Assembly: GCA_019746225.1 (NCBI GenBank)
Contig: JAIESE010000013.1
Span: forward strand, 106,063 to 170,062
Direction: 5' to 3'
Length of the DNA: 64,000 nt
From: Alphaproteobacteria bacterium
Lineage (GTDB): Bacteria > Pseudomonadota > Alphaproteobacteria > Paracaedibacterales > VGCI01
Part shown: positions 11,553 through 51,946 of the stretch, piece after piece
How positions within the stretch are numbered: the first letter of the stretch is position 1
How the letters are laid out: each line of letters starts with the position of its first letter
The notes under the pieces: generated by a model
What the model saw: the letters and a program-made list of their open reading frames with translations, nothing else
Databases searched by the model: none
What the model was told of the DNA's origin: nothing
Made by a program: the position numbers and the translations under genes

Positions 11553-11631
11553 TTTCCTTATTCATATCCAACACCTGATTTAATGAGATGCTTATTGCAT
11601 ATCATAGGACTACGGAAATATAAAGATGGCC
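11553..11631. repeat. Copy 1 of a ~79-bp direct repeat; this is the 5' UTR and upstream region of the oxygenase gene
   Basis: The core CCTGATTTAATGAGATGCTTATTGCATATCATAGGACTACGGAAATATAAAGATGGCC (11574-11631) recurs at 13430-13487 with one mismatch. Weaker homology extends from TTTCCTTATT. Confidence 0.9.
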
Positions 11632-11847
11632 AATAAACTCTATAATAGTCCATGTCAGTTTACCCATTTATAAGGATTTTGCAATAAGCATACCTCAAAG
11701 CCAATTGAGGTCATCACCACTCCGGGACTAAAATAGCACCCTACGCACTTCACGAATTTTCTTAGTGGGTGAGAGAACACCTCTTAGGGTATGGATGAAA
11801 TATTTTTTATTGCCAAAATCATGCTCTAAACTATACAAACAATGAAA

Positions 11848-11870
11848 CTAGCGTATTTTTACGGTATTGC
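11848..11870 (+). promoter_or_regulatory. Conserved box CTAGCGTATTTTTACGGTATTGC overlapping a putative -35 (site 1)
   Basis: Identical to 49918-49940 and near-identical to 45865-45887. TTGCAT is followed after 16 nt by TATTAT. It lies ~170 nt upstream of the 12042 ATG. Confidence 0.5.
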
Positions 11871-12041
11871 ATAATATAAATATCTTGTTATTATAAAAAA
11901 CTTCAAACGTTTTCAGTTGTTTTTGCTATTAGAAAAGCTCATTTAGCAAGCATGCTAAATATTATATATATTGATGCGCCACAATGCAAAACCAATTTAT
12001 AATTTAATTTTTATATTTAAAAAATAAGGCAAATATTTAAA

Positions 12042-13109
12042 ATGAAGTTTAAAAATTTAATAATTAACATAATTATACCATATATTTCTCTTTTTATTAT
12101 GATATTAATATCCCGTTTTATGATGGGCAATACGTCAATAGGGGTATTTATTGGATTTATTGGATGGTTAATCTTCTTGGCAGGGTATTGGTGGATCAGT
12201 TGTGTGTCAGCGACCTGGAGAAATGAGAAAGGACATTTTTTACATTATTGTACCAGAAAGGATGAATTAACATCGATCAAAATTTTTGAAAATGAGGACC
12301 CAAAGAAAGCAAAAATTATTGAAAGCAGCTATGCCCTCGTCGCCGCAATTAGAGTCAACAAGGAACAAACTCCGAAGCTAAAAGATAGCAAGTTTGGCGG
12401 CGTACCATATTGGCCTAAAGGCAAAGAATACCCAGTAACATCAGGGGGAAAAAGATTAGGCATGCTTGCCCAAATTAACTGCAAAGATGTGCCAAAAGAA
12501 TTAGGCTGGCCAAAGCGGGGGATTGTTCAGTTCTTCCTGAATGATGATGAGGATCATGATTCCTTTCATCCCTTAAATAAAAATCGCTCCCGCGTCATAT
12601 ACCATGAAGACACCAAGTTAGATTCAATAGAATTGAGCGTGGAGCAAGAGCCCATTTACTGGGGAAAAAACTACCCATTCAATTTTTCTCAACCCATGAA
12701 AATTGACTTCATGCTTGGTCATATGTTGCCCGTTCATCCTTCGGCAGATGTACTTTTAAACCCAATGCTAGCAGATCTTCTTGGGGCCACTGACTTTAGA
12801 TATGACACAAAAAATCCAGACCTTACATCCTCCTACTGGATCTATTGGGATCTCAAATGGCATGAATCATTTCCTAATTTCCCTAAACACTATATTGGGG
12901 GTTTTCCCGCAACAGACTATATTGCTGGGATGAGATTTGAGAATTACCCTCGTTATTCTAATCTTCTGCTTCAGATAAGTTCGGAGGGAAAAAAGGATGG
13001 GATCGGCTGGGTTGACGGAGGCCAGGGACAGTTTTTTACTTCTTCTCAAAAGCTAAAAGATAAAGATTTTACAGACGTCTGCTTTGCGGATTATTTTTCG
13101 CATTTCTAA
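12042..13109 (+). CDS. DUF1963 (YwqG-like) domain protein with two N-terminal TM helices
   Basis: KFGGVPYWPKGKEYP...MLAQINC...GIVQFF matches the blocks I recall for DUF1963. AT-rich gene preceded by a ~400-nt very AT-rich leader. Confidence 0.65.
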   Translation: MKFKNLIINIIIPYISLFIMILISRFMMGNTSIGVFIGFIGWLIFLAGYWWISCVSATWRNEKGHFLHYCTRKDELTSIKIFENEDPKKAKIIESSYALVAAIRVNKEQTPKLKDSKFGGVPYWPKGKEYPVTSGGKRLGMLAQINCKDVPKELGWPKRGIVQFFLNDDEDHDSFHPLNKNRSRVIYHEDTKLDSIELSVEQEPIYWGKNYPFNFSQPMKIDFMLGHMLPVHPSADVLLNPMLADLLGATDFRYDTKNPDLTSSYWIYWDLKWHESFPNFPKHYIGGFPATDYIAGMRFENYPRYSNLLLQISSEGKKDGIGWVDGGQGQFFTSSQKLKDKDFTDVCFADYFSHF

Positions 13110-13154
13110 TCAATCTTAAATCTTGATACTCATGATGAGCCCGGTACAAATTCA

Positions 13155-13405
13155 CCCGTACAAATTGAGTATTAACGCAATCCACGGCTTGGGTGAGCTG
13201 AATAGATTTGGGATCTTCCATGGGCAACATGGGCAACATGAAAAACAAATCAAGCTGAACTTGCTGATCCCGTGGCAACAGATCAAACACCATGACCCCT
13301 GCTTTATGGTACGCAAAGCCGAGCTTAAATATACTCTCAAATGCTTTCGTTGTGGCTTTAATCAGACTCAAATCATCATCAACGGGACAAGGCAAAATAA
13401 GGGTT
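13155..13405 (-). pseudogene. Internal fragment of umuC (duplicate of 13942-14184)
   Basis: The translation PCPVDDDLSLIKATTKAFESIFKLGFAYHKAGVM...DPKSIQLTQAVD.VNTQF is near-identical to UmuC residues in the full copy. There is a 9-nt internal duplication (MLPMLPM). It lacks the 5' ~900 nt and the last ~115 nt of the gene. Confidence 0.9.
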
Positions 13406-13408
13406 ACA

Positions 13409-13487
13409 TTTCCTTATTTAAATTCACTGCCTGATTTAATGAGATGCTTATTGCATATCATAGGACCACGGAAATATAAAGATGGCC
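13409..13487. repeat. Copy 2 of the ~79-bp direct repeat, fused to the umuC fragment
   Basis: See 11553-11631. It starts 3 nt after the point where umuC homology ends. Confidence 0.9.
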
Positions 13488-13826: not shown

Positions 13827-15095
13827 CTACCGCGCATACGCCTTGGGGAGATCCTGCCAGCAGGTGGTGTAAGCGGGTGAGACATTGCGTTTCTGGTCCC
13901 GCCATCGCAAGCGCTTTCCGCAGGCGGCCGAAAAAAGTGTCCCCCGTCCAAATTGAGTATTCACACGATCCACGGCTTGGGTGAGTTGAATAGATTTTGG
14001 GTCTTCCATGGGCAGCATGGAGAAAAGATCAAGCTGAATTTGCTGATCCCGGGGCAATAGATCAAGCGCCATGACCCCTGCTTTATGGTACGCAAAACCG
14101 GGCTTGAAGATGCTCTCAAACGCCTTCGTTGTGGCTTTAATCAGGCTCAAATCATCATCAACGGGACAGGGCAAAATAAGGGTTGCGTGATTTCGATATT
14201 GGGGCTGATTTTTGCGAAAAAAATTCGTGCGAATCTCCACCAAAACACTGCGCGTCTTTAAGCCATTGATGCGCAACTTTTGGGCCAATCGGGTGGCATA
14301 GGTCGCAACCGCCGCTCGAACATCTTCTTCCTTGACCATGGGCACGGCAAAGCTACGGGATACTTGGATTGATTTTTTAGGATCCTGAATGTCCTCGACC
14401 TCAAGGCAAGACAGCCCATTCAGTTCATGAATGAGACGCTCCCCCACAACCGTAAAGGTGCGCCGCATCCAACGAGGATCGATTTCCTTCAACTGCAGCC
14501 CTGTATAAATACCATAAGCCTGCAGGCGCTCCGTGATGCGACGTCCAATGCCCCAAATGTCCTCAATCTTGATGGCCTTTAGCGCCCCATTCACACGCGC
14601 GTCCGTATCCAAAACACACACGGACCGATACGCCCCCACCCGCTTAGCAAAGTAGTTAGCCACCTTCGCCAAGGTCTTTGTCTTAGCAATGCCGATGGAC
14701 GTGGGAAGTCCCAAAGATTGATAGATCTGATTCCTCAAATGATGCGCCCTTTCCTCTATGCTCACCACACCTGAAAAGTCGATAAATGCTTCATCAATGG
14801 AATAGACTTCGAGGCGCGGAACATGAGATTCAATCAGCGTCATCATGCGCGCGGACATATCCCCATAAAGGGAAAAGTTTGACGAAAAAACGGCAACGTG
14901 ATTTTTAAGGAGAATATCTTTGATTTTGAAATATGGCGCGCCCATGGGGATACCGAGTGCCTTGACCTCTGCGGATCGGGCAATGATGCAGCCATCGTTA
15001 TTCGACAGAACCGCAACGGGACGCCCCACAAGATCGGGGCGAAAGACCCGCTCGCACGAAGCAAAAAAATTATTGCCATCGAGAAGACCAATCAT
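13827..15095 (-). CDS. umuC: Y-family DNA polymerase V catalytic subunit UmuC
   Basis: MIGLLDGNNFFASCERVFRPDL...SIDEAF motifs and a C-terminal SPAYTTCWQDLP. Overlaps the upstream umuD-like gene by 4 nt. Confidence 0.9.
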   Translation of the reverse strand: MIGLLDGNNFFASCERVFRPDLVGRPVAVLSNNDGCIIARSAEVKALGIPMGAPYFKIKDILLKNHVAVFSSNFSLYGDMSARMMTLIESHVPRLEVYSIDEAFIDFSGVVSIEERAHHLRNQIYQSLGLPTSIGIAKTKTLAKVANYFAKRVGAYRSVCVLDTDARVNGALKAIKIEDIWGIGRRITERLQAYGIYTGLQLKEIDPRWMRRTFTVVGERLIHELNGLSCLEVEDIQDPKKSIQVSRSFAVPMVKEEDVRAAVATYATRLAQKLRINGLKTRSVLVEIRTNFFRKNQPQYRNHATLILPCPVDDDLSLIKATTKAFESIFKPGFAYHKAGVMALDLLPRDQQIQLDLFSMLPMEDPKSIQLTQAVDRVNTQFGRGTLFSAACGKRLRWRDQKRNVSPAYTTCWQDLPKAYAR

Positions 15096-16547: not shown

Positions 16548-16565
16548 CTTTGAGATATTACGAGC

Positions 16566-19927: not shown

Positions 19928-20275
19928 CTAAAACAGCTTCTGCCCGTTGGGAACCCGCGGGTCGGCAGTCGCAAGACACACAGCGCCCGCCTCATCAGGA
20001 AATCCAACTAGGAGAAATTCGGACATGAACCCAGCGATATTGCGAGGGGCTAGGTTCACGCATCCCATCACTTGCCGTCCAACAAGATCTTCAAGGGTGT
20101 AGTGTTTGGTAACTTGGGCGGACGTCTGCTTGATGCCAAGGTCACCCCCGAAATCAACCCACACTTTGTAAGCTGGCTTTTGCGCTCTTGGAAAAGCTTC
20201 TGCTTTGACAACAGTGCCGGAACGCAATTCAACACGACTAAAATCTTCATAAGTAATAATATTCATATTCTTCAT
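19928..20275 (-). CDS. csaA: tRNA-binding domain protein (CsaA-like)
   Basis: F..VELRSGTVVKAEAFPRAQKPAYKVWVDFG matches the EMAP/CsaA-type OB fold. ~115 aa. Confidence 0.8.
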   Translation of the reverse strand: MKNMNIITYEDFSRVELRSGTVVKAEAFPRAQKPAYKVWVDFGGDLGIKQTSAQVTKHYTLEDLVGRQVMGCVNLAPRNIAGFMSEFLLVGFPDEAGAVCLATADPRVPNGQKLF

Positions 20276-28233: not shown

Positions 28234-29073
28234 ATGCGTCATTATGTATATGGTTTATTATTTGCAAGCGCTCTATTTAGTCAAGAAGCTATCTCCATGC
28301 AAGAAGAAAAGATGGCGATTTCTCCGGAGTTGCATAAATTATTAGAGGATATCAAAGGTATCAAACCTGGCGCCGCACTTGATAAGCATCTAGCTGGTAT
28401 CAAAGAATCAAACAGTGACCATTGGAGATCAATGTGTAAGGAAATTACAGATAACCGGTTCATAAAAATATCTCAACCGGCTGTTGGTAATATGAAAGCA
28501 GCTGCATTGGGCAGATGGTGTGATAACTATCAAGTTGTTCAGGTGATGAAAAAATCTGTTCAAGGAGCAAAAGTCGCAGCAGCTGTAGCAGAAATGCCTA
28601 AATTGAGGCCAGTTCAATTAAAGCAAGGCGCCAAGGGCTTTGAGGCGAAAGAACAGCAGCTCAAAGAAAATCAAAAAGAAGCCGATGAGCGTGTTCGACA
28701 AATGGCTCAGGAAAAAGATGTGCGAATGCAAGAGCGCGCACGAGAGTATGAGAAAAGGATTTTACTCGTAAGAAAAGATATAGAAGAAGCAAGAGAGTCT
28801 TATGACAATTTAAGTGCTGCAATGAATGGTTTGCGCGAAGATTTTCAACAAGTTGCTATGCTGAAGCAGTTTAATAACGAGCACAAGCATGACACCGCAG
28901 AAGAATTTTTGAATGCATACGACGCCTATGTTAAAGCCACGCCTAATATTAGAAATTATGTACAAGGACTTGATCAAGTAGATGCAGCACGCATAAAGTT
29001 AAAAGAAGCCTTAACAGCTCAGGAGCGTGGTGAGGAAGTTATAGCGGCTCTCATAAAAGAGATGAATCAATAG
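28234..29073 (+). CDS. Secreted coiled-coil protein (hypothetical)
   Basis: Signal peptide and long charged heptad-like regions. AT-rich. No family recognised. Confidence 0.5.
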   Translation: MRHYVYGLLFASALFSQEAISMQEEKMAISPELHKLLEDIKGIKPGAALDKHLAGIKESNSDHWRSMCKEITDNRFIKISQPAVGNMKAAALGRWCDNYQVVQVMKKSVQGAKVAAAVAEMPKLRPVQLKQGAKGFEAKEQQLKENQKEADERVRQMAQEKDVRMQERAREYEKRILLVRKDIEEARESYDNLSAAMNGLREDFQQVAMLKQFNNEHKHDTAEEFLNAYDAYVKATPNIRNYVQGLDQVDAARIKLKEALTAQERGEEVIAALIKEMNQ

Positions 29074-38724: not shown

Positions 38725-39894
38725 ATGAAGAGCAGACTATTTATTTTTTCGTTAATTATGCAATTGATCCTCATTTGCCAAAATTTAGCATCCGTAAAAT
38801 TTGCGCAAGTGTCAGACCCCCACATCTTTGAAGACGCAAAACGGGCGGAGGATGCGAAAATTTCTGCCGCTGATTTTCTTGTCGTGGTCGAAAAAATAAA
38901 TAACATGTCAAAAGAGTCAAAGGTGCCGCTAAGTTTCATTGTTTTAACAGGAGATCTTGGGATTGGTAAACTTATAAAGCCGAAGGAGGTCGGAACCCTA
39001 CATCTGATCAAAGATGTGGACAAGTGGGACCAAGCTAAAGTGACTCTGGCTCAAATTCTCAAAGTCTCAACCGTAAAGAAGTGGCTGATTGTGCCCGGAA
39101 ACAACGACCTTTTTGAAGAGAATCCAGAATCGGTCAAGTTTTATGAGGATTTCTTGAAAGAAGTTCAAGAGATGCCGGAGATCAAGGCCGCAGGTCTTTC
39201 AATTGTGGATTTCCGCCTTGAAGCCCCTCGAAGCGCCCAACCAAAATCCCCCCCGGGGGTGTATGTGATTAAAGATTACGTCTTTGTGGGCTGGGACAAT
39301 GCCTTCTTTAAAAACAATGATTCTGTCAAACCCTTTATGACCAAGGACCATAAGGTTGTCCCTTTTGCCAAGACCCTTGAGTATAAAAGCGTGCAAAAAT
39401 TGTCGAGAGCCTTGCAATCCTCAAAGGCAAAATATGCTTATATTTTTTATCACATCCCGGAAATTGATGACCCTTACATGATCAAGCTCAATGAAAATGA
39501 AAAAGGAAATGTGGTCTCGAAGCGAATGGATGAGGCCAAAAGTTTGTCCCTTGAATTTGCGAAAGGAATTTATCCGTATTCTGCTTGGACGGTGCCCTTA
39601 GAAGTGCGCCAACTATGGGAGAAAGTTGCGACGAACCAGGCTTTCCGAACGCCCGTTATCAAAGGTTTATTTGCCGGTCATTTCCACGATCATAAGAAAA
39701 ATACGTACGAGACAACGACCTGGGTAAAAGATACGCGCTATAAATCAGATATATTGAAGAAGCTTTATCTGGATCCCCCTATATCCATAAAGTATCAAGA
39801 AAAAAAGCCCCCTACCGATCGTGCCCGGGGAGCCCAAATCGTGACCATTGACGATCAGGGCAACGTGAGCCGTGAGATCTTTTGGTTGGATTAG
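38725..39894 (+). CDS. Secreted calcineurin-like metallophosphoesterase
   Basis: Signal peptide plus the SDPH, LTGDLG, PGNND, YHIPE and GHFHDH metal-ligand blocks in canonical order. Confidence 0.8.
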   Translation: MKSRLFIFSLIMQLILICQNLASVKFAQVSDPHIFEDAKRAEDAKISAADFLVVVEKINNMSKESKVPLSFIVLTGDLGIGKLIKPKEVGTLHLIKDVDKWDQAKVTLAQILKVSTVKKWLIVPGNNDLFEENPESVKFYEDFLKEVQEMPEIKAAGLSIVDFRLEAPRSAQPKSPPGVYVIKDYVFVGWDNAFFKNNDSVKPFMTKDHKVVPFAKTLEYKSVQKLSRALQSSKAKYAYIFYHIPEIDDPYMIKLNENEKGNVVSKRMDEAKSLSLEFAKGIYPYSAWTVPLEVRQLWEKVATNQAFRTPVIKGLFAGHFHDHKKNTYETTTWVKDTRYKSDILKKLYLDPPISIKYQEKKPPTDRARGAQIVTIDDQGNVSREIFWLD

Positions 39895-39997
39895 ATGAGC
39901 TTCACTATTCTGTGGTGTTGGTTTCGAAAGCAAGGACTTTCACATCTTTTTGGGGGTGGCAGGCTCCATTTAACGGGCCTACCACCCTACTCAAGCT

Positions 39998-41593
39998 TTA
40001 CTTAATGAGTGGCTTCATGATTTTTTCAAACCAGTTATATAAATGTAGATTTAACGTCAATGCACGTCTGCCATGGTAAACCCGGGTATGATCCGTGTCG
40101 GTTTCTGTTCCAAAGATAAAGGATTGGATATCCCCACCCATAATGTCACTCAACGTTTCTTGCTTGAAAATTTCAGCGAGTGTAACTTTTTCGAAATTGT
40201 CCCCCACACACTCAACAAATTCCATATTTTGGAGAAGGTCATCGAATGTTAACTCACGATATGAGTCTCTTAAATACGTTGTTTGAAGGAGCTGTTCTGC
40301 TTTTATGCTTCCTACAAGCTCTAAAAGCTGAGCATCTGAATTATACCCAATAAAGTCAGAGAATTTTACATCTTTATAAATGTCACATACCCTCTTGTCA
40401 GCATAAATATCCGCTATTGAAATGGCTTCATCGCTATGGAAACGTTCTGTATAGCAAAAAGGATCACTTTGTTTGGGATCTGATTTCTCTTCTATTTTTT
40501 TAAAAAATAGCTGCGTTTTTGTCATTGTTGAAATGGGCATTTGTGAACCGACAACGAAGAGACCCGTTGTTAGTGAATGCTTCCATCTTTCCATTAAAAT
40601 GTGAAAGGAGTTAGCTGGATTGAAAGACTCAGCGAGCAAGGGGGTAATCTGATAAATATGATTTTCATGAAGCAAGCGAAAACCTGCTGCTATCGCTAGA
40701 GGTCGTGATTCAGCAGGTACAACGCCACTATTAACAACGGCTAATAGTCGTCCAGCTATATCTGCAATTATATTTGCAATTTTCATATAGTTTTGAGGTG
40801 AGCCGCCTTCAGTATTAGGCATGAGTTGGTCATTCATATGGGCTTGATCATGAATAAATAAAAGAATGGGAAGGTCAAATAAATACCCATGAGCCTTTGC
40901 AAAATCTTTATTGAGCCCATAAAGAGCTTTCTTTTGCCACGTTGCATAAAGGTAATCCTCTTCAGTGTAGATTGCATTTTCACCGGTTAAAATAACGGGC
41001 ATAAAATGCTCGCAAGTTAGTTCATAACCAAAGCTTGTTCTTTCTTCAAAAGGTGCGTCTAAGCCTTTATCTATATGGTGTGTGCCCTTTTTAGCATAGA
41101 AGAGTTTATGATTCGTAACCTCATTATAAATTCCATCATTCGTCGTATTTTTAGGGAGAGAATAACTAGGATCAAAAATTTCTGGTGATAATAACAAGCT
41201 TGCAGCCTCAGCTACTTTTAACATATCAACCCCAGTTAATTCTTGTTTTGTTGTTGCCTCATGCAATCTGCAGGCAGCACCAAACATGGTATTGTAGGTA
41301 AGATCTGAAGGGGTAATATCTTCCTTGCCTGTCTGAGGTAAGTCCATCTTTACAAGCCCCGTCTTTTGAAATATTTCAGCGTAGGGTAGATTCTTGAATC
41401 GAGCATTATTTTCATCCAAAACAGTTTTTACTGTAAAGGCTATAACCTCTTTAACATTAGAGGGAAATGTTTGAGGGGTGTATCGATCACTTATTGGTCT
41501 TTGTCCGTCATGCTCCATTGCTTTTGTGCAGTCAGCACCCACAAGAAGCGTTAAAAGTACGGGTATTGCGTAATGTAATTTGAATTTAAACAT
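39998..41593 (-). CDS. Large secreted hypothetical protein (ORFan)
   Basis: Signal peptide MFKFKLHYAIPVLLTLLVGADC. 531 aa, AT-rich, no family recognised. Confidence 0.55.
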   Translation of the reverse strand: MFKFKLHYAIPVLLTLLVGADCTKAMEHDGQRPISDRYTPQTFPSNVKEVIAFTVKTVLDENNARFKNLPYAEIFQKTGLVKMDLPQTGKEDITPSDLTYNTMFGAACRLHEATTKQELTGVDMLKVAEAASLLLSPEIFDPSYSLPKNTTNDGIYNEVTNHKLFYAKKGTHHIDKGLDAPFEERTSFGYELTCEHFMPVILTGENAIYTEEDYLYATWQKKALYGLNKDFAKAHGYLFDLPILLFIHDQAHMNDQLMPNTEGGSPQNYMKIANIIADIAGRLLAVVNSGVVPAESRPLAIAAGFRLLHENHIYQITPLLAESFNPANSFHILMERWKHSLTTGLFVVGSQMPISTMTKTQLFFKKIEEKSDPKQSDPFCYTERFHSDEAISIADIYADKRVCDIYKDVKFSDFIGYNSDAQLLELVGSIKAEQLLQTTYLRDSYRELTFDDLLQNMEFVECVGDNFEKVTLAEIFKQETLSDIMGGDIQSFIFGTETDTDHTRVYHGRRALTLNLHLYNWFEKIMKPLIK

Positions 41594-41740
41594 CTGTTGC
41601 TCTCATAAAATTATTAATAAATTGGGATTCAAAATATATATAGTTATTTATTTTAGAAATGCAATAAATAAATTTTTAACTATGGAGAATACTAACCAAA
41701 TGACGACGACGGCTGAAATCTCACTTCTTATACAGATCGA

Positions 41741-41822
41741 CCACCGTGTCTCGACACGGGTGAGATCTTCTTTAGCATTTGTCAGACTTTGCATGACTTT
41801 CATAAATTCTTTGGGATGGTTA
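41741..41822 (-). pseudogene. Decayed duplicate of the 3' end of the ABC-F gene uup
   Basis: The translation NHPKEFMKVMQSLTNAKEDLTRVETRW compares with NHPQEFMKVTEALTKAKEELARTETRW at the Uup C-terminus. By eye about 70% nt identity to 42701-42782, same orientation. Confidence 0.6.
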
Positions 41823-42017: not shown

Positions 42018-42647
42018 ATGAAGGAACAAAATATGATCAACGCAATACTAAGTAAAATCAATCAACTAGTTTTTATGGGGCTTTTTCTTGTAAGCAGTGT
42101 CATAGCCATGGACCAAGTTGAAAAGAAGGTAATAACACCTCAGAATTCAACGGTCGTTTATTATAAGTTAGCAAATGAAGCTTGCACACTCCTTCTACAA
42201 GAGTACGCAGCAAAAGGCGGTGATGAGATCGTCCCTGGTTTTGCCCATGAGACGGTAACTGCTCAAAACGCTATAACACGGGTTAAAACAGCTTTCCGGA
42301 CAAACATCCTTGGGTGTGGATTGCATCCGGGAATTCCCGAAAAACTTTGGAGTGAGAAGCCCTATAGCGGGTTGAGGGGTACAATAAAATTCGGAAATCA
42401 CAGATTGATTCTTAAGGTTCGTGAACTGTACGAGCAATACTATGTCCTTAATGATGGTGTCAAACTAAGAGACATAGTCAATAATTTTGACTATATCGAG
42501 CATCCTTACATTGATTATAGTAAAGGCTTTTCTCCAAAAATGCCTGGAGAGATGAACGAGGGCGAGAGAGCCTATGTTCAAGGGTTAATAGAGGCGTATG
42601 ATCAGGCAAATCCTAATCAACAAACCCCTGATTGTGTTGTTATGTAA
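42018..42647 (+). CDS. Secreted hypothetical protein (ORFan)
   Basis: Signal/anchor segment LVFMGLFLVSSVIAMD. 209 aa, AT-rich. Confidence 0.5.
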   Translation: MKEQNMINAILSKINQLVFMGLFLVSSVIAMDQVEKKVITPQNSTVVYYKLANEACTLLLQEYAAKGGDEIVPGFAHETVTAQNAITRVKTAFRTNILGCGLHPGIPEKLWSEKPYSGLRGTIKFGNHRLILKVRELYEQYYVLNDGVKLRDIVNNFDYIEHPYIDYSKGFSPKMPGEMNEGERAYVQGLIEAYDQANPNQQTPDCVVM

Positions 42648-42664: not shown

Positions 42665-44446
42665 CTATGAAGAGCTGGTCATCACTTCATCCAATTCCAG
42701 CCACCGCGTTTCAGTACGTGCCAGCTCTTCCTTGGCTTTTGTGAGCGCTTCAGTAACTTTCATGAATTCTTGTGGGTGGTTTTGATAGAAAGAGGGGTCT
42801 TCGAGGCGCGCTTCAGCGGTCGAAATCTTTTTCATCAATTCATCCATGCGAGCGGGCAGAAGGTCGTATTCGCGCTTTTCATTGTAGGTGATTTTCCGAA
42901 TCTGTTTGGGCCGTTCCACAACTTCTTTAGGCACTTTAAGGGATTTCACAGCCTCTTTTTGGTGAGGAAATTGCCGGATATAATCTTGATAACCGCCGAC
43001 ACATTCACGAATCAAGCCATCGCCTTCGAGGGCAATAATCGACGTGGTGAGGCGATCCAGAAAGTCACGATCGTGGCTGACGATAAGGAGAGTCCCTGTA
43101 AAGTCGCTGACCATCTCAATCAACAAATCGAGGGTATCCATATCAAGGTCGTTGGTGGGCTCATCGAGGATCAAAACATTGCCGGGGCGTGTAAGCGCTT
43201 TGGCCAGAGCCAGGCGATTTTTCTCGCCACCAGATAAGATGCTCACGGGAGAACGCGCTTGTTTTTCTTCAAACAAAAAGTCTTTGAGGTACGCCATCAC
43301 ATGGCGGGGTTGCCCTTGAACCAAGACGTGATCACCGCCGGTGTCACACAAGGTTTGCCATAAGGTATCGTTGGGTTTTAAGGTGTCACGCAGCTGATCA
43401 AAATAGATAAGATCGATATTGGTCCCAAGGCGAACGGTTCCTGAATCAGGGGGCATAACGCCGGCCAACATGCGGATGAGAGTCGTTTTTCCCGTGCCAT
43501 TGGGGCCGATAATGCCTATGCGATCTCCGCGTAAAATCCGTGTTGAAAAGTCCTGAATAAGGGGTTTGCCGCCCAGTGTTTTGCTGATGGATTTGGCTTC
43601 GATGACCAATCTGCTCCCGCCTTCCGCATCCGCCCCGGCCATTTTCAATTTTCCAATTTGTCCTGACAAGAAGGCACGCTTTTCCTCTCGTAACGTATGG
43701 AGTTGGCGCAAGCGCCCTTGGTTGCGTTTCCGCCTGGCTGTAACACCCCGATGCAACCATTCCATTTCTTGTTTGAGTTTGGTGTTCATCTTACTGAAGG
43801 TCTTTTCTTCCTCCGCGAGCAAATGATCGGACCAATTTTCAAAGTCCGCGAACCCTTTATTATGGCGATGCAACAGACCCCGATCCAACCAAAGGCAAGA
43901 GGTTGAAACGCGCTCTAGAAACGTGCGGTCATGGCTGATACTAAGCAACGCGCCGGTATATTGACGCAAATACTCTTCGAGCCATTCGATAGTGGGAAGG
44001 TCCAGATGGTTGGTGGGCTCATCCAGTAACAGCACGTCCGGATCACCTACGAGCGCACGCGCCAAAGCTACACGACGACGCTCGCCGCCTGAAAAACCAT
44101 CCATCATCCGATCACGATCCATTTTCAGAAGGTCAAGAATCTCGTCCGCTTCGAACGGGGCACAGCCTGACTGCATGACAAATTGCTTGGGAGTTTGGTC
44201 CGCCTCGAGCCACACATCTTGCGGTAAATAGGAGATGCGGGTGCCAGGTTGAACAAAGCGCTCGCCGTTATCTATGTCCATTTGACCACAAACAATTTTT
44301 AAGAAGGTAGATTTGCCAGACCCATTTCGCCCCACCAAACAGGTTTTATCACCTTTGGAAATATTGTTGAATAACCCCTCAAATAAGGGCTTTCCCCCAA
44401 AGGTCAGCGAGATATCGCGCAAAGAAATAAGAGGAGGGAGTGCCAT
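42665..44446 (-). CDS. uup: ABC-F family ATPase (Uup-like)
   Basis: Two ABC cassettes (GRNGSGKST and GPNGTGKTT; two LSGGE signatures), no TM domain, C-terminal coiled coil. Confidence 0.9.
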   Translation of the reverse strand: MALPPLISLRDISLTFGGKPLFEGLFNNISKGDKTCLVGRNGSGKSTFLKIVCGQMDIDNGERFVQPGTRISYLPQDVWLEADQTPKQFVMQSGCAPFEADEILDLLKMDRDRMMDGFSGGERRRVALARALVGDPDVLLLDEPTNHLDLPTIEWLEEYLRQYTGALLSISHDRTFLERVSTSCLWLDRGLLHRHNKGFADFENWSDHLLAEEEKTFSKMNTKLKQEMEWLHRGVTARRKRNQGRLRQLHTLREEKRAFLSGQIGKLKMAGADAEGGSRLVIEAKSISKTLGGKPLIQDFSTRILRGDRIGIIGPNGTGKTTLIRMLAGVMPPDSGTVRLGTNIDLIYFDQLRDTLKPNDTLWQTLCDTGGDHVLVQGQPRHVMAYLKDFLFEEKQARSPVSILSGGEKNRLALAKALTRPGNVLILDEPTNDLDMDTLDLLIEMVSDFTGTLLIVSHDRDFLDRLTTSIIALEGDGLIRECVGGYQDYIRQFPHQKEAVKSLKVPKEVVERPKQIRKITYNEKREYDLLPARMDELMKKISTAEARLEDPSFYQNHPQEFMKVTEALTKAKEELARTETRWLELDEVMTSSS

Positions 44447-45864: not shown

Positions 45865-45887
45865 CTAGCGTATTTATACCGTATTGC
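45865..45887 (+). promoter_or_regulatory. Conserved box CTAGCGTATTTATACCGTATTGC overlapping a putative -35 (site 3)
   Basis: 20 of 23 nt match sites 1 and 2. TTGCTG is followed after 16 nt by TATATA. It lies ~55 nt upstream of the ATG at 45941. Confidence 0.45.
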
Positions 45888-45940
45888 TGTTATTAAAAAC
45901 GCGAATATATACTAAATCTCAATTTTTAGGAGATGCCACC

Positions 45941-46771
45941 ATGAAACTTCAATCGTTGCTATTCGCTTTTGCCGCAAATACCCTCATGCCTTATCCGCTA
46001 ATGGCGAGTGATAGCAGAGTTCCAGATCTACCAATAGAAATGGATGTTCCCAAGTGTGCAGGAGTCGCTTCCCAAGGGGAAGTATTGAATCTGGAGGAGA
46101 AAAAGACTCTATTATTGAGCGCGTGTGGGGTTGAAAAAGACCGTCAAGCACTTATCAACGCCTTTAATGAACCTTCTTCTGAGGATGCATTAAGGCAAGT
46201 ATTAGCCTGGATGACGGAAGATAGGCTTAAAAGGAGCACAAAGACTTCAAATTGGTCTTCGTTTATGCTTGGTGTTCTCAAAATATTGGAAGAGTTTGAA
46301 GATGATAAACGACATGCCTTTGTTTTACGGCTAGAACAAAACGGCGTTATGACTAGGTGTAGTAATATTTTTGATATCCATCATTATCTCCAGATCTTTA
46401 GGAATTCTACTACTGAGAAAATGAATCAAGCTATGAGATGGGTTAAAGAAACGGGAATTTGGGAGGTTTGCAAAAGCGGTGAATTCCATTTACCTAACTT
46501 GGTGGAATTAGTAAAAGACTATGACCAGGAGCAACTCGGTTGTGTAACATCATTTCTCAAAACAACAGGGATTTTGAGCCAATATTGCCATCAAAATAAT
46601 CTGTATGAACCCAGAAGGCGTCTCGCAGAGATGCTTAATCTTCTTAAAACGTGCCGCACAGAACAACTAGAGTTTCTTGCGCAATGGATGAAAGCAACGA
46701 CTTACATCTATAAGCACTTGGATGAGGGAAACGGGCGCTTGGGAGAAACTCAGCTCCTGGTACTGCTTTAG
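45941..46771 (+). CDS. Secreted repeat protein, N-terminal part (probably split from 46722..48410 by a frameshift)
   Basis: AGGAG RBS and the ATG at 45941 give the signal peptide MKLQSLLFAFAANTL; the track TTG at 45884 lies inside the box. Recurrent W(M/V)(K/R)E(T/S)G-type modules. Confidence 0.55.
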   Translation: MKLQSLLFAFAANTLMPYPLMASDSRVPDLPIEMDVPKCAGVASQGEVLNLEEKKTLLLSACGVEKDRQALINAFNEPSSEDALRQVLAWMTEDRLKRSTKTSNWSSFMLGVLKILEEFEDDKRHAFVLRLEQNGVMTRCSNIFDIHHYLQIFRNSTTEKMNQAMRWVKETGIWEVCKSGEFHLPNLVELVKDYDQEQLGCVTSFLKTTGILSQYCHQNNLYEPRRRLAEMLNLLKTCRTEQLEFLAQWMKATTYIYKHLDEGNGRLGETQLLVLL

Positions 46772-48410
46772 TAATTTTATTCTTTTAGGTAAGAGGTATG
46801 ATGAATCATTATTTATCAAAGCCTTATCTGAAAATTATGTCACTAGTGCTGGCCTTACTCAGGAAATCTTTTTTGACTTTTTTATGAGACATTTTCCGGA
46901 TGGTGACTCGGTAGATTCTTTGCGCAAATTAAAAGCTGCTGCTACCTGGATTAATGAATCATATTCAGAAAAATTTTACTCTAGTGAGGTAAAAGAGCTA
47001 TTTTCTATTCTCAAAAAATACGATTTTGAATATTTAAAGCTAATTACATCCGTCCTAATGGAAATGCGTTGGTTGGATACAATGCAGCCTTGTAATTTAA
47101 CACTCGCATTAAGAAGATTAAAAAACTGTAACAAGGAAACCTTCACAACAATTATTTCATGGATGAAAGAATCTGGGGTTTTGGCAACCTGCAATGATGT
47201 GGAAAGTTTTCTTAACGTAATCAGTTCCATCCAAACATGTGGGCCAGAGGACCTCAGAAATCTTATAGAACAAGGGGTTGTTCCAGAAAACGTTATTGAA
47301 GTTTTGATCCGCGTGTTGGGTGAAACCCATCCCGTCACCCAAAATCTCATAGAATTAGCCATTGGGTATGACAATCAACGAAACCCCAATAGCCCATTTG
47401 CAGTTTACTGTGAAATGAGGAAAAAGAGTAGTGATGAGGTTGAACACCGCCAACTTCAATTAACGACAGGTCTATCTTTGCGGTTAAATAGTATCAAGGA
47501 ACCTCGACCAGCAATCAGTATTCATATGCCTTCCAATGTTTGGAAAAGACTTTTTGAACAGTTTGAGAAAATAGATCCATCTACTTACACTGAACTTTTG
47601 GGTGATATTTCCCTAGAAACTATCTTGAAACTTAAAAATCACCACGACATTGTAAGGCTTCTGGACCCCAAAGATAGTCTAAAAGTTAATAAAAAGATCT
47701 CTTCGCACAGTCATATGTTGAGAGAAGTTCTTAAAAAAGCGCAAGAGGATTTTAGACTAGACCACGAGAATATTGGCAGTTTTGTACAGCTCTTGGTCAA
47801 CATCACAACGTGTCAAACAGGAAAGCTCAACGGGATTACTCACAGTTATATCTATATGAACCAGGGTCGCGCGCTCGATGAAAGTGTATTGGGGGCAGAA
47901 GGGTTTAAGCAAGAAATTGTCAGTTTCTTTAAGGAAGAATTACGACGCTTTAGAGAAGCAACCTTAGCGGCAATTGTGAGGAATATTACGAGGAGGCCAC
48001 AGGCTGATCCTCATGATCTTTACTATGTACGTGGCATTATTGGTCATGAGACTGGCCTCTTTTTTGAGAATGAGACCCCAACGGTTGACATTTATGCTTG
48101 GGGTGTCTCTGGGAAATTGAGGGGAAAAACCAAACAACAATTGTTGGATTTGTTCTATCAATATTACAAGGTGGAAGATGTGGTGGATCGCGTTCACTCG
48201 ATGTTAAACAATGGCTCAATTAGTATCTCAAATGAGTACTTAAGGGATGAGGCTATGGACGAAACATTGAGTGCGTGGGATCCTGAACTCGTGGTGCTGG
48301 ATGGTCAACAAAAGCCTTTGGGTCTTACCCCAAAAGCAGCACAGCGCCTTCTGGAAATTCTCGGTTTTGTCGTGAACGAAAATAAACCAGAGGAAACCAT
48401 GAAAACTTAA
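46722..48410 (+). CDS. Repeat protein, C-terminal part with a unique ~330-aa C-terminal domain
   Basis: The same module (TWMRETGAWEKL, SWMKESGVLATC) continues here. This frame is open from 46692 and overlaps the upstream ORF by 80 nt. Confidence 0.55.
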   Translation: MRETGAWEKLSSWYCFSNFILLGKRYDESLFIKALSENYVTSAGLTQEIFFDFFMRHFPDGDSVDSLRKLKAAATWINESYSEKFYSSEVKELFSILKKYDFEYLKLITSVLMEMRWLDTMQPCNLTLALRRLKNCNKETFTTIISWMKESGVLATCNDVESFLNVISSIQTCGPEDLRNLIEQGVVPENVIEVLIRVLGETHPVTQNLIELAIGYDNQRNPNSPFAVYCEMRKKSSDEVEHRQLQLTTGLSLRLNSIKEPRPAISIHMPSNVWKRLFEQFEKIDPSTYTELLGDISLETILKLKNHHDIVRLLDPKDSLKVNKKISSHSHMLREVLKKAQEDFRLDHENIGSFVQLLVNITTCQTGKLNGITHSYIYMNQGRALDESVLGAEGFKQEIVSFFKEELRRFREATLAAIVRNITRRPQADPHDLYYVRGIIGHETGLFFENETPTVDIYAWGVSGKLRGKTKQQLLDLFYQYYKVEDVVDRVHSMLNNGSISISNEYLRDEAMDETLSAWDPELVVLDGQQKPLGLTPKAAQRLLEILGFVVNENKPEETMKT

Positions 48411-48443
48411 TGAGGCAGCTTCAGCAAGGCAGAAGATAAAGAC

Positions 48444-48623
48444 TCAATCATCCAAAGAGCTTTTCTCCCCTGCTTCTTCCGCATCTTCCTCTTCCGCTGT
48501 CTCTTGAGTGGGGATTTTGTAATCTTCCCTAAACCATTTGATGAGGTCAATGTTCTTACAGGTCTTTGAACAGAACGGTGCATAGGTTTTATCAGCGTGC
48601 TTTTGGCAAATAGGACACGGCAT
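48444..48623 (-). CDS. yacG: DNA gyrase inhibitor YacG (zinc finger); 59 aa, below the ORF-track cutoff
   Basis: My own translation is MPCPICQKHADKTYAPFCSKTCKNIDLIKWFREDYKIPTQE... It matches CPxC...PFCSxxCxxIDLxxW...IP of YacG. TAATG overlap with the upstream kinase gene. Confidence 0.75.
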   Translation of the reverse strand: MPCPICQKHADKTYAPFCSKTCKNIDLIKWFREDYKIPTQETAEEEDAEEAGEKSSLDD

Positions 48624-49654
48624 TAGAATTCGCCTCCTTTGATGAATTGAGATTTGAGAACGGCATGGGATAAAGGCTCCTGATCATGGTCTTTGAACCA
48701 GGCTTTAAGGGCGGCTAAATCGGGGTGTTCCAAACAGCTATGAAGCATTTTCCACATGCGGGGGAGATGATTGAGGTAATGGGTTTTGCCGTCCCGCACC
48801 GCAAGGCGGGTAAAGATGCCGATGTTTTTGGCATGGCGTCCAGCGGCCAATAGGCACCCTGATGATCTCAAAGCTTCTTCATCCAAATGAGGAAAGGCCC
48901 CTAAATATCGTTGCCAGCAATGCTCGATGAGCGCAGGCTCTAAATCGAGGCGTTCATCCTCCACAAGGGAGATAAGATCATAAGCAACGGGTCCCCATCC
49001 CGCATCTTGAAAATCCAGAAGTCCACAGGCGGCAACATCAGCGCGATCTTTCAAGAGCATCAAATTATCCACATGATAGTCCCGCAATGCTAAGGTATGG
49101 GGACTCTTAACTGCTTTTTCAAAAACAGGTCTCCAGAGATCGAGATAGTCTACTTTCTCGGAATTGGACAAGCTCTTATTGCAATTCGCAGGCACATACC
49201 AGTCAACAAATTGGGTGACTTCTCGCAGCATATGATCAACATCATAAGCGGGGATAAATTCTGGGCAATCCGTTGCCCGCTGATGAAGAGCGATGAGGGT
49301 ATCGACCGCCAACTCATAGAGGGGATAGGGATCATGGCCTGCTTGCAACAGTTTTGTATAAGTCGTCTCACCAAAATCCTCTATGGCCAGTAACCCTTGG
49401 GACAAATCTTCGGCGAGGATGGCAGGCGCTGAAAATCCAAGATCCTTCAAATGGGATGCCACGCGCACAAATTGGGTGGGATTTTCAGGAGGTGGTGCAT
49501 CCATCAAGAGTCCCCCCTCATAGCGGAAATATTGTCGCTTCGAGGCATCACAAGGCAACGCCGTCAGGGATTGATGGCCTAAAAAGAGATGCCGTTGCGC
49601 TACCCGGTCGAGGGGATCAACTTGTGGTTTCTGGTAAGGTTTTAAGCGACTCAT
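48623..49654 (-). CDS. Aminoglycoside-phosphotransferase-fold kinase (AmgK-like)
   Basis: LRDYHVDNLMLL (catalytic loop) and LLDFQDAG. The position after tsaE is common in alphaproteobacteria. Confidence 0.72.
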   Translation of the reverse strand: MSRLKPYQKPQVDPLDRVAQRHLFLGHQSLTALPCDASKRQYFRYEGGLLMDAPPPENPTQFVRVASHLKDLGFSAPAILAEDLSQGLLAIEDFGETTYTKLLQAGHDPYPLYELAVDTLIALHQRATDCPEFIPAYDVDHMLREVTQFVDWYVPANCNKSLSNSEKVDYLDLWRPVFEKAVKSPHTLALRDYHVDNLMLLKDRADVAACGLLDFQDAGWGPVAYDLISLVEDERLDLEPALIEHCWQRYLGAFPHLDEEALRSSGCLLAAGRHAKNIGIFTRLAVRDGKTHYLNHLPRMWKMLHSCLEHPDLAALKAWFKDHDQEPLSHAVLKSQFIKGGEF

Positions 49655-49825
49655 GGGGTCCTACTAAGGTTATGGTAATTTCTCGCGTTGTTTCATTGAC
49701 GATTTTTAATGTGATATCAATTCGTCGGCGGGGCAATAAATCAGCCAACCGCTCCGGCCATTCTATCAAGCATATGGCCTCATGAAAAGCATCTTCAAGG
49801 CCTAACTCAAAGTTTCCTGAGGGTA
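49608..49825 (-). pseudogene. Duplicated 3' end of tsaE (copy of 51475-51692)
   Basis: The core 49613-49803 differs from 51480-51670 at about 6 positions by eye. The translation FELGLEDAFHEAICLIEWPERLADLLPRRRIDIT.KIVNETTREITIT.VGPHESLKTLPETTS equals the TsaE C-terminus. Confidence 0.92.
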
Positions 49826-49917
49826 AAGAAAAATTTGAAGATCTGTAAGATAGAGACCTTTTTAGCAAATTAAACTGATATTCCTGAAATAACTCACCCT
49901 CTTTGAAACTTTAGGAA

Positions 49918-49940
49918 CTAGCGTATTTTTACGGTATTGC
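49918..49940 (+). promoter_or_regulatory. Conserved box CTAGCGTATTTTTACGGTATTGC overlapping a putative -35 (site 2)
   Basis: Identical to site 1, with 26 nt identical when flanks are included. TTGCAA is followed after 18 nt by TACAAT. It lies ~80 nt upstream of the 50019 ATG. Confidence 0.5.
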
Positions 49941-50018
49941 AAAAATATATTTTGTGTCTCTACAATAATGCTCATTTTTTAATAAGTACTTTATGTTTAT
50001 TAAAATTTATTATTTAGC

Positions 50019-51434
50019 ATGGAGAAAAAAATACATAAATATTTAAAACAAACAACTTTTGCTTTATTAGTGACAGGACTCTGTTCTCAAATAGGGTTTA
50101 CATCTGAAGAGGGTAAGGAAAGTAAGAAAAGAAAGTCTTCTCATTCTTCTATCGCTCATACTGAACGCTTACAGGGAGATCAAACTTCAGCAGTAATATC
50201 TCCTATGCTTAAGTCCCAGAAGACTGAGGATGAACCTCAAATAGATCTTCGTAATCTTGGTAAGCTTTTTGAGTTGCCTTATCACGTTCGTATGCAACTC
50301 TACGGACTTTTGGATAGCACAACTCTTAAGTTCTTAAATATTCAAAACAGAGCATTACGATGTGAGATCTTTCAACAAAGAGGAGGTAGAATAGACTTAA
50401 AAATAAACACTCCTGTAGAAGCTTTAAGGGGGATGCTTAGGAAAGTCGGAAAAATAGACCTAGTGGCTAACTGTCTGAGATATTTGAATGTTCAAGGCTT
50501 GAGTGTTCTTGCAAAGCAAGATGGAACAGTTGATAAAACTCAATTCTTGGATGACGAAATCGTGGACCTCCTTGCCAGGTGCAAAAATTTGAAATCTTTC
50601 GCATTGTCTAGCTGTATAATCTGTCCCGGTGGTAAGAATTGGACTGAAGAAAGTACGGAAAATTGGGGAAATAACCAAAACCCTTTAAGACCTGTGGCTA
50701 GAAACGCCCTTACTCGCCTTTGCGAGGTTATATCAACAGAAACTTTATGCGAAGAGTTGATTTACGATTCAACTCCTTATTCTGAAAATTGGGAGTGGGA
50801 CCACGAAGATTGCCATGTTAATGGTCCTTTCGATTCCGATTCTGCCCTAAAAATTGTGCGTAAATCTTTTAATTTTTCAAAATTGAAAAAATTAAAAATT
50901 GGTTTAAATTTTGATACCACCTCCCTTTCTAAAATAGTTAAAGAAAAAATAGAATATATGACTTCATTGGAATATTTAAATTTACATTTTTGTGGGGATT
51001 TTCAAGAACTATTTATTGAGCTCCTGGGAAAAGTCAAAAATAATAGCAAACTAAAAGTATTTAAATTAGAATCTGAAGAATACTCATACGGCTTTAATCT
51101 TAGAATGCTCACTGAAATTTTTAATTCTGATCTATATATACAAAGAATATATCTTCATAATTTATGGTTTGACTGTGATCATCAAAATATTTTTAGGGAA
51201 TTATGCCAAGCTGTAAACCAATCTAGAAGTTTAGTTAAACTGAAATTTTTAGCACTTAAATTGCCTTATGGACAAGGTTTTTATAATGGGCTCAACCTCT
51301 TATTCAGGATAAAAGTTTTTTGCCATAATTGTCGTGAACCAATAGAAAACAAATGTTTTGATCCGAAGAATTTTACAAGGAAAAGCTTAATAATTGAGAC
51401 TTTTTGCGAAGAGTGCAAGGCAAACGGTGAGTAA
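50019..51434 (+). CDS. Eukaryote-like F-box-like / leucine-rich-repeat protein with a signal peptide
   Basis: LFELPYHVRMQLYGLLDSTTLKFLNIQNRALRCEI fits the F-box spacing (LPxx...L..L......L). It is followed by RNI-type LRRs (LKSFALSSC, LKKLKIGLNF, LEYLNLHFCG, LKVFKLES, LVKLKFLALKL). C-terminal CxxC...CxxC. About one-third GC by eye. Confidence 0.6.
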   Translation: MEKKIHKYLKQTTFALLVTGLCSQIGFTSEEGKESKKRKSSHSSIAHTERLQGDQTSAVISPMLKSQKTEDEPQIDLRNLGKLFELPYHVRMQLYGLLDSTTLKFLNIQNRALRCEIFQQRGGRIDLKINTPVEALRGMLRKVGKIDLVANCLRYLNVQGLSVLAKQDGTVDKTQFLDDEIVDLLARCKNLKSFALSSCIICPGGKNWTEESTENWGNNQNPLRPVARNALTRLCEVISTETLCEELIYDSTPYSENWEWDHEDCHVNGPFDSDSALKIVRKSFNFSKLKKLKIGLNFDTTSLSKIVKEKIEYMTSLEYLNLHFCGDFQELFIELLGKVKNNSKLKVFKLESEEYSYGFNLRMLTEIFNSDLYIQRIYLHNLWFDCDHQNIFRELCQAVNQSRSLVKLKFLALKLPYGQGFYNGLNLLFRIKVFCHNCREPIENKCFDPKNFTRKSLIIETFCEECKANGE

Positions 51435-51484
51435 TGGGTCCAGTTTTTAAATTCGTCGTCTGGCCATCCCTTCAGTTGAGGAGA

Positions 51485-51946
51485 TCAACTTGTGGTTTCT
51501 GGTAAGGTTTTAAGCGACTCATGGGGTCCTACTATGGTTATGGTAATTTCTCGTGTTGTTTCATTGACGATTTTAAAAGTGATATCAATCCGTCGGCGGG
51601 GTAATAAATCAGCCAACCGCTCCGGCCATTCTATCAAGCATATGGCCTCATGAAAAGCATCTTCAAGGCCCAGTTCAAACACTTCCTCGGGGTCTTTGAG
51701 ACGATAAAGATCGCAATGCCACACTTCGCCTTGAGGGGTATCATAAGCTTGTACAAGCGTGAAAGTCGGACTGGGGACATCTATGTCTTGACCAACCATA
51801 GTTTGAATGAGAATGCGCGCAAATGTCGTTTTCCCGACGCCCAAATCCCCCCACAAGGCAATCACGTCTCCTGGCCGCAAAGCTTCTGCCAGAGGCTGCA
51901 CCAAGCTACTGAGGTCTTGTTGAGTGAGGGTGTAGGTGAATGTCAT
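51485..51946 (-). CDS. tsaE: tRNA t6A biosynthesis ATPase TsaE
   Basis: WGDLGVGKTTFAR (P-loop), SPTFTLV and HCDLYRL. Confidence 0.9.
   Translation of the reverse strand: MTFTYTLTQQDLSSLVQPLAEALRPGDVIALWGDLGVGKTTFARILIQTMVGQDIDVPSPTFTLVQAYDTPQGEVWHCDLYRLKDPEEVFELGLEDAFHEAICLIEWPERLADLLPRRRIDITFKIVNETTREITITIVGPHESLKTLPETTS

Follow-up and report, generated by a model that had tools for sequence, protein, structure and literature searches.

Integrative elements that insert at gene 3' ends, among them the islands at tRNA and tmRNA genes as well as ICESt1 and the cis-mobilizable elements (CIMEs) at fda, restore the gene that they target. Minimal mobile elements, described in Neisseria, and homology-facilitated illegitimate recombination are known in transformable bacteria. 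Among obligate symbionts of protists, genomes are compact and poor in mobile elements, yet many secreted, host-directed proteins are gained; the route by which new genes enter them with essential operons left intact is poorly understood. An integrase-less island of Escherichia coli, the microcin H47 island, has long imperfect direct repeats and undergoes RecA-independent excision and integration (PMC5426353). Here we analyze a stretch of 64,000 nucleotides from an alphaproteobacterium of the Paracaedibacterales (contig JAIESE010000013.1, positions 106,063 to 170,062), referred to below as the window, in which direct repeats occur at three loci, tsaE/amgK, umuC and uup. At each of them the repeats are accompanied by a single AT-rich, lineage-specific gene, which we call the cargo. 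This architecture of repeats and inserts is real, derived and unusually dense. In the explanation that we favor, and to which we give about an even chance, the three loci are independent insertion-duplication scars, left by the general recombination and replication machinery of the host under a selective filter and without a dedicated mobile element.

Direct repeats and cargo genes at three loci

Self-comparison of the window by BLASTN, together with a repeat search, detected four direct repeat pairs at the three loci. The tsaE pair (51475-51693 and 49607-49824) is 92.7% identical over 219 nt and 95% identical over an ungapped 205 nt (E 2e-71). At umuC, positions 13940-14200 match 13152-13418 with 85% identity over 270 nt and one in-frame indel of 9 nt (89% in ungapped blocks, E 5e-71). 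A second pair at this locus, termed D5 (11553-11631 and 13409-13487), is 91% identical over 79 nt (E 8e-20). The uup pair (42682-42781 and 41721-41821) shows 70% identity over 102 nt (E 2e-7), with 19 of 27 amino acids (aa) identical. The repeat period is 1868 nt at tsaE and 1856 nt at D5. An earlier reading of this DNA, made from the letters and the open reading frames (the sequence-only reading), had put the best repeat identity at about 97%; the measured best value is 93-95%.

The readable sequence of this genome comprises ∼82 kb, namely the window with 8.6 kb on its left and 9.2 kb on its right. A six-frame self-comparison revealed no further diverged gene-fragment duplicates in the window, and the two extensions contained no additional ones, only a palindromic repeat family. 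Indeed, every gene-fragment duplicate in the ∼82 kb adjoins a cargo gene. As a control, the same method was applied to 1.43 Mb of alphaproteobacterial sequence from other loci, mostly of free-living species and with ∼0.12 Mb of Holosporales. Local direct duplicates (300-4000 bp apart) with an identity of 85% or more were absent, and a single weaker one (76%) was present. The density of duplicates in the window therefore exceeds chance.

Read on the minus strand, the tsaE locus consists of intact tsaE (51485..51946, minus strand, assigned by Pfam), 1650 nt of cargo, and a 209-nt tsaE 3' fragment that carries the real start of amgK. The right repeat copy (51475..51693, minus strand) is made up of the 3' end of intact tsaE and a dead amgK start of 16 codons. 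The left copy (49607..49824, minus strand) is a tsaE 3' fragment with an open frame of 83 codons, and contains the true amgK start codon (49654), the first 16 codons of amgK and a promoter-like site (49788->49760); in both copies such a site lies ∼105 nt upstream of the amgK ATG. The amgK gene itself (48623..49654, minus strand), which encodes an APH-family kinase according to Pfam, is intact and starts inside the tsaE fragment, as it starts inside tsaE in relatives. The overlap of tsaE and amgK measures 38 nt, and the dead first 16 amgK codons in the right copy imply that the duplicated segment spans this overlap. The cargo is p471 (50019..51434, plus strand), an ORFan with a signal-peptide-like N-terminus. 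Its upstream region (49825..50018, plus strand) is AT-rich (GC content 0.25) and contains a 26-nt motif (49916-49941) and a promoter-like site, TTGCAA-18-TACAAT (49937-49966).

The umuC locus is composed, in this order, of umuC, a spacer of 339 nt, D5b, umuC', cargo, D5a and a gene for a 273-aa 2OG-oxygenase-like protein. Intact umuC (13827..15095, minus strand) has all four Pfam domains. The fragment umuC' (13152..13408, minus strand) is equivalent to 13940-14187 within the parent segment 13940-14200, has an in-frame insertion of 9 nt and lacks the last 113 nt of umuC. D5a (11553..11631, minus strand) is the 5' region, with the ribosome-binding site, of the 273-aa gene (10725-11546), which follows directly downstream. 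D5b (13409..13487, minus strand) is the second copy of this region and is joined directly to umuC'. The cargo encodes a DUF1963-domain protein (12042..13109, plus strand, Pfam) with a hydrophobic N-terminus, and is preceded by an AT-rich region (11632..12041, plus strand, GC 0.30) with the 26-nt motif at 11846-11871. The sequence-only reading had taken a duplicate of the umuC 3' end as the repeat that brackets the insert. Neither part of this description was upheld: the insert is bracketed by the 5' region (79 nt) of the 273-aa gene, with D5a as the left copy, and umuC' is an internal fragment of umuC that lies inside the insert.

At 13408|13409 umuC' (umuC position ∼14188) runs straight into the beginning of D5b, a site that represents the novel joint of either a duplication or a circle. 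The order at this locus fits a tandem duplication from umuC position 14200 to D5, and it equally fits a circle [D5-cargo-umuC'] that integrated at D5; in either topology the cargo replaces 452 nt of one copy. The resident umuC is the nearest relative of umuC', and no donor allele turned up among 120 umuC homologues, none of which was nearer to the fragment. Apart from the resident gene itself, no homologue exceeds 80% identity to it, and all are farther from umuC' than from the resident. In addition, umuC' carries derived amino acid changes that are absent from all homologues.

D5b, with its duplicated promoter and ribosome-binding region, and umuC' form an open frame of 108 codons with a TTG start (13069-13487). 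This frame encodes part of the UmuC little-finger domain followed by a new tail and, judged from its sequence, may be expressed. At the joint of cargo and umuC' (13138-13170) a 10-nt motif occurs twice, 13 nt apart (GGTACAAATT and CGTACAAATT), and may be a trace of microhomology or slippage left when the two were joined.

At uup, the cargo p209 (42018..42647, plus strand) sits directly after the stop codon of the intact gene, which encodes an ABC-F ATPase (42665..44446, minus strand). It is followed by uup' (41721..41821, minus strand), which derives from the last ∼115 nt of uup (parent segment 42682-42781), has decayed and is frameshifted after the codons for ...ETRW. The tsaE and uup loci thus share the order intact gene, cargo, and same-orientation 3' fragment of that gene, and at both the cargo sits exactly at the joint between the copies. 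The earlier description of each locus as a short single-gene insert has to be modified for uup: compared with the relative L014, the lineage-specific region there spans 4.2 kb and three genes (p389, p531 and p209), with uup' in mid-position. Genes for a GspE/PilB-like protein (T2SSE and MshEN domains) and a GspF/PilC-like protein adjoin this island (35511-38449); by their similarity they could serve the secretion of signal-peptide proteins or DNA uptake.

The window is from an uncultured Finniella-like symbiont, placed in the Paracaedibacteraceae (Holosporales), and its loci were compared with those of related genomes. The closest AmgK matches are from metagenome-assembled genomes (MAGs) of Candidatus Finniella (66-69% aa identity); that of Ca. 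Paracaedibacter symbiosus is 49% identical. In ∼80 alphaproteobacterial genomes, including the Finniella MAGs, tsaE ends at or inside the amgK start with no insert, and in the four closest relatives the amgK ATG lies within the last codons of tsaE. A compact order, tsaE-amgK-MFS-uup, is seen in L013 and L014, with gspE directly after uup in L014, and the two relatives whose sequence reaches uup have no insert there. Relative to L014, the window contains extra DNA in most intergenic gaps: higBA, p471, p295 with p562, and the 4.2-kb block of p209, uup', p531 and p389. At umuC, the umuD-leuS flank is conserved among relatives and the flank 3' of umuC differs in every one of them. None of the cargo proteins is encoded at the locus of any relative, nor did the relatives show repeated use of the same target site (tsaE/amgK in ∼80 genomes; flanks of uup and umuC). 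These insert-free genomes bear out the proposal that the three loci are real and that their inserts were gained. In ∼12 independent JGI/Logan metagenomes, all contigs of the strain that reach the tsaE or umuC site carry the insert with 100% identity, and no empty-site allele was present among contigs with the exact tsaE, amgK, DUF1963 and 273-aa proteins. An identical DUF1963 protein is also annotated on an NCBI MAG contig.

For p471, neither a homologue among 5.8 billion proteins nor a Pfam family was found. It has sub-threshold matches to F-box (E 0.02) and leucine-rich repeat (E 0.3) domains, and its single-sequence AlphaFold model (pLDDT 37) was unusable. The closest non-self homologues of the DUF1963 protein are 41-42% identical. 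p209 belongs to no Pfam family and has five remote homologues among 1.84 billion representatives; a metagenome scan yielded no relatives of its family. Signal-peptide-like N-termini are found in p471 and p209, and the DUF1963 protein has a longer hydrophobic N-terminus. The expectation that the cargo proteins carry signal peptides was therefore right for nearly all of them, and the units are indeed compact and each equipped with a promoter-like sequence, as anticipated for cassette-sized units with their own promoter. p209 ends in CVVM, a CaaX-type prenylation box (CaaX-like), and CaaX-like ends are also present in two of its five remote homologues (PDCVVM, GCCIS). This motif suggests that p209 may be lipidated by a eukaryotic host, despite its signal-peptide-like N-terminus.

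Cargo and repeats differ in composition. The cargo genes have a GC content of 0.34-0.40 and a GC content at third codon positions (GC3) of 0.28-0.39, compared with a GC3 of 0.40-0.56 in neighboring housekeeping genes, and the regions upstream of the cargo genes have a GC content of 0.25-0.33. For the repeats the GC content is 0.43-0.49, and the GC3 is 0.39-0.48 in the fragments versus 0.37-0.52 in the resident genes. An AT-rich donor of the fragments was rejected because of this native-like GC3. Given their native composition, and given that umuC' is nearest to the resident umuC, the repeats are host DNA and not ends imported from the source of the cargo. The distance from the cargo stop codon to the adjacent host-derived segment is 40, 42 and 17 nt.

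A 130-nt stretch upstream of p471 recurs, with 68% identity, upstream of the DUF1963 gene (49916-50043 and 11846-11972, E 3e-8). Within this stretch lies an exact match of 26 nt, AACTAGCGTATTTTTACGGTATTGCA (11846-11871 and 49916-49941), of which zero would be expected by chance. It contains the palindrome CGTA-TTTT-TACG and a -35-like TTGCA, and it overlaps a -35-like hexamer of the promoter-like site of p471. The match is positioned 91 and 214 nt inside the units, and for this reason it looks like a common regulatory module rather than the end of an element. From its sequence, the 130-nt stretch may be a shared regulator site or promoter module. There was no third copy of the 26-nt motif in the 82 kb read, and a scan for it in a metagenome collection from which this genome is itself absent gave no match.

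Comparison with described insertion systems

The sequence-only reading had noted that the window lacks an integrase, a transposase, a tRNA and an attC-like hairpin, and our analysis agrees with it. Among the genes scanned in the window and its 18-kb flanks, none has a Pfam domain of a recombinase or transposase, and the window contains no tRNA, no attC-like hairpin and no Rfam family. The insert ends have neither terminal inverted repeats nor hairpins, and no core or motif is shared across the six junctions. For integron cassettes, both the end inverted repeat and the integrase are missing, and the 17-42 nt from the cargo stop codon to host sequence are too few to accommodate an attC site, an imperfect palindrome of ∼57-140 nt. 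Insertion sequences, transposons and miniature inverted-repeat transposable elements (MITEs) would have terminal inverted repeats, which are absent, and short target-site duplications of one fixed length; the duplications here measure ∼100, 219 and 79 (or ∼790) nt. Of the features of site-specific integrative elements, a recombinase (which a CIME does not need), a short identical att core and a recurrent target, none was found. The loci do have the layout of an insertion-duplication. Direct repeats of native sequence flank the insert, one gene copy is complete and one truncated, and a novel joint connects the far with the near end of the duplicated segment; at tsaE and uup this joint is occupied by cargo.

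Campbell-type insertion-duplication, as in suicide-vector mutagenesis and natural plasmid integration, produces the same direct order of host, insert and host with one complete and one truncated copy. It needs no dedicated recombinase, and recombination between the repeats can free the unit as a circle. At the loci described here, however, circle and donor are hypothetical, the repeats differ by 5-30%, and the cargo has no replicon or selectable backbone. Microhomology-mediated tandem duplication, by unequal sister exchange or template switching, matches the umuC order exactly: a site within umuC is fused, at the novel joint, to the beginning of the neighboring gene's 5' region, and short repeated motifs are present at the joints. 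In contrast to such duplications, the insert is compositionally foreign and holds a complete gene, and the microhomology is weak.

The H47 island resembles the units in having no integrase and extensive imperfect direct repeats, and it excises as a circle and re-integrates by host functions (PMC5426353). It is larger (13 kb), occupies one specific site and is flanked by att-like repeats with four homology blocks, not by fragments of housekeeping genes (PMC5426353). Mobility was demonstrated for H47, whereas the present units are known from sequence only; by analogy, the H47 island may be regarded as a documented precedent for the mobility of such units. The minimal mobile elements of Neisseria are likewise single accessory genes between housekeeping genes that depend on host recombination and have no mobility genes, but they replace the sequence between flanking genes and leave no direct duplications.

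A resemblance to integrative elements that bring a replacement 3' end had been suggested for these loci. The order of intact target, element and displaced direct 3' fragment is indeed common to both, and CIMEs also lack an integrase of their own. Yet those elements have a short identical core, a recurrent target and a cognate recombinase, none of which was found here, and one of the three repeat pairs does not derive from a 3' end at all. Each site has different repeats, and all of them are long, imperfect and native-like in composition. This part of the sequence-only reading was therefore abandoned. Among the mechanisms it had named, recombination-based insertion fits best, in line with its proposal of homology-facilitated integration.

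Origin of the duplications

In the mechanism that we propose, a gene-dense region would have received a small DNA equipped with a promoter of its own and a single secreted-protein gene, and in the joining event 0.1-0.8 kb of native sequence would have become directly duplicated. The joining could have occurred by unequal, microhomology-mediated exchange between sister chromosomes that was bridged by the new DNA or, equivalently, by single-crossover integration of a small circle carrying a host fragment. Selection would then have retained only those outcomes in which both neighboring genes survived. At tsaE/amgK, because the two genes overlap by 38 nt, one copy would complete tsaE and the other would keep the amgK start with ∼170 nt upstream of it, including the promoter-like site. 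The duplicates would afterwards decay, and gene conversion or homologous exchange with sister alleles would probably also reshuffle them. Of this account, the sequences show the topology, the derived state of the loci, the native composition of the repeats and the lack of element hallmarks; how the DNA was joined, the selective filter and the later allelic exchange are inferred. Scars of this kind would offer a concrete solution to gene entry into packed genomes, in that insertion coupled to duplication of the target keeps both neighbors whole. If they are common in Holosporales, effector gains could be dated and counted by a simple sequence signature, and there would be a testable case of integrase-independent gene mobility.

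Several observations weigh against this explanation, among them the pattern of divergence between the copies. Differences at the first, second and third codon positions number 5, 5 and 17 in the umuC pair, 1, 0 and 5 in the tsaE pair, and 5, 3 and 16 in the uup pair, with ratios of non-synonymous to synonymous divergence (pN/pS) of 0.15, 0.15 and 0.23, respectively. Simulations were run that keep the observed mutation spectrum. With all changes neutral, such patterns had P values of 0.0002 (umuC), 0.03 (tsaE) and 0.0008 (uup). When the fragment was neutral and the resident gene was restricted to synonymous changes (in-place model), the values were 0.035, 0.14 and 0.13, and their Fisher combination gave ∼0.02. 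An in-place duplication with a neutrally decaying fragment predicts a pN/pS of ∼0.5, compared with the observed 0.15-0.23. This suggests that both copies spent much of their divergence within working genes. The third-position bias means that an extra step, exchange with a sister allele, must be assumed. Gene conversion as its cause was rejected by reasoning, as conversion erases differences without favoring synonymous ones. Divergence is also uneven. The D5 copies differ by one mismatch in the right 58 nt and by six in the left 21 nt, a perfect block of 58 nt in the tsaE pair adjoins a boundary zone that is ∼35% diverged, and umuC' differs from its parent at 27 of 243 positions (11%). These patterns are suggestive, not decisive, for a later exchange of one copy with a sister allele, or for arrival of the unit from a sister strain by a single crossover. 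Moreover, the microhomology at the umuC'|D5b joint is weak (TTGCG at both parent sites, TTACA at the present joint), and three events in 64 kb are many for a rare accident.

The most probable rival is Campbell-type import from sister strains, which we consider unlikely, though with an appreciable chance. A circle of ∼1.9 kb with host fragment and cargo would have been released by excision from the genome of a diverged sister strain, in which the cargo was already present beside the same gene, and would have integrated homologously, so that the repeat copies would be donor and recipient alleles. Such import would account for the low pN/pS at all three loci and for the near-perfect blocks (58 nt at tsaE, 58 nt with one mismatch at D5), which are expected around a crossover or heteroduplex tract. 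The near-equal repeat periods of 1868 and 1856 nt and the resemblance of the umuC'|D5b joint to the closure point of a circle point in the same direction, and a related Holosporales genome (umuC 73% identical) is present in the same sample. However, import merely shifts the primary insertion to the donor lineage, where it still needs explaining, and no donor or polymorphic strain was found, all contigs of the strain being identical. The derived amino acid changes of umuC', absent from homologues, indicate that decay took place in situ as well. The non-coding D5 block is 98% similar, odd for diverged alleles whose umuC synonymous sites have a pS of 0.32, and the statistics are marginal. Tandem duplications or remnants of rearrangement breakpoints could also have come first, either to serve later as landing pads for foreign DNA or to be mere neighbors of ORFans. 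The umuC locus lends itself to this view, with its cargo within one copy and not at the joint, and with an interval between umuC and the 273-aa gene that is a synteny breakpoint, filled differently in each relative. A duplicate is also lacking at five or more other ORFan sites of the window. Nevertheless, we regard such a two-step or coincidental origin as unlikely. All gene-fragment duplicates in ∼82 kb adjoin cargo, the cargo at tsaE and uup fills exactly the space between the copies, and the control loci have no such duplicates of at least 85% identity. Unselected tandem duplications are, furthermore, short-lived.

Non-autonomous site-specific cassettes, similar to CIMEs or IMEX, could be moved by a recombinase encoded elsewhere in the genome and target and replace gene 3' ends. 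The order of intact gene, cargo and displaced 3' fragment at tsaE and uup would agree with this, as would the compact units with promoter-like upstream sequence and the 130-nt region with its 26-nt exact match common to two units; the recombinase search covered the window and its 18-kb flanks. We nonetheless hold such cassettes to be quite improbable. The junctions have no core or motif in common and no inverted repeats or hairpins, the repeats (79-260 nt) are imperfect and unrelated between sites, and the umuC fragment is internal to its gene and lies within the unit. The repeats are native in composition, unlike the cargo, and the tsaE/amgK site is not used in any of the ∼80 related genomes. 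With positions 91 and 214 nt inside the units, and with a promoter-like site among them, the 130 nt common to two units look regulatory rather than att-like. An artefact of chimeric metagenome contigs is conceivable for a window that is metagenome-derived and for loci near whose repeats several contigs end, yet we give it next to no weight: the tsaE and umuC structures recur at 100% identity in ∼12 samples on contigs that span both copies, and copies that differ by 5-30% are not expected to collapse or to be mis-joined. It is rather unlikely that a dedicated process of this symbiont lineage installs promoter-equipped genes for secreted effectors into gene-dense DNA while duplicating 0.1-0.8 kb of the target. 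Were it true, a trans-acting recombinase or a replication-coupled mechanism would be at work by which overlapping or packed essential genes are never broken, and the mobile unit would include the 130-nt upstream module that two cargo genes have in common. We regard the finding as a useful lead for a whole-genome census; a new mechanism is not yet shown.

Further genes and repeats of the window and its flanks

Further lineage-specific genes with low GC3 are p279, p251, p389, p531, p295, p562 and the toxin-antitoxin pair higBA, located in the regions 28234-29073, 31356-32111, 38725-41593, 45884-48410 and 51962-52650. They lie between conserved genes with no flanking duplication, and most of the ORFans among them have signal-peptide-like N-termini.

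The palindromic repeat element measures ∼150-190 nt and has at least three copies in the 82 kb, in the window at 5898-6086, in L123 at 20027-20204 and in L126 at 13910-14111. It consists of nested inverted repeats (CGTCATTGCGAGGAG...GACGCGGCAATCCATGTATT and AATACATGGATTGCCGCGTC...CTCGCAATGACG), and its DNA fold has an energy of -47.6 kcal/mol (z = -7.8). The element is MITE-like or resembles repetitive extragenic palindromic (REP) sequences, and it is situated at no insert boundary. A second intergenic direct repeat family was observed just left of the window (L123, 13922-14154 and 20350-20574), with 70% identity over 243 nt, upstream of two plus-strand genes.

Within the window, a Sel1/TPR-repeat protein of 1306 aa is encoded at 6750-10670 by a gene with periodic DNA repeats of 111 and 222 nt. 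It adjoins genes for a patatin, a PLD protein, an aspartic protease and a lysozyme, with which it forms an effector-like cluster.

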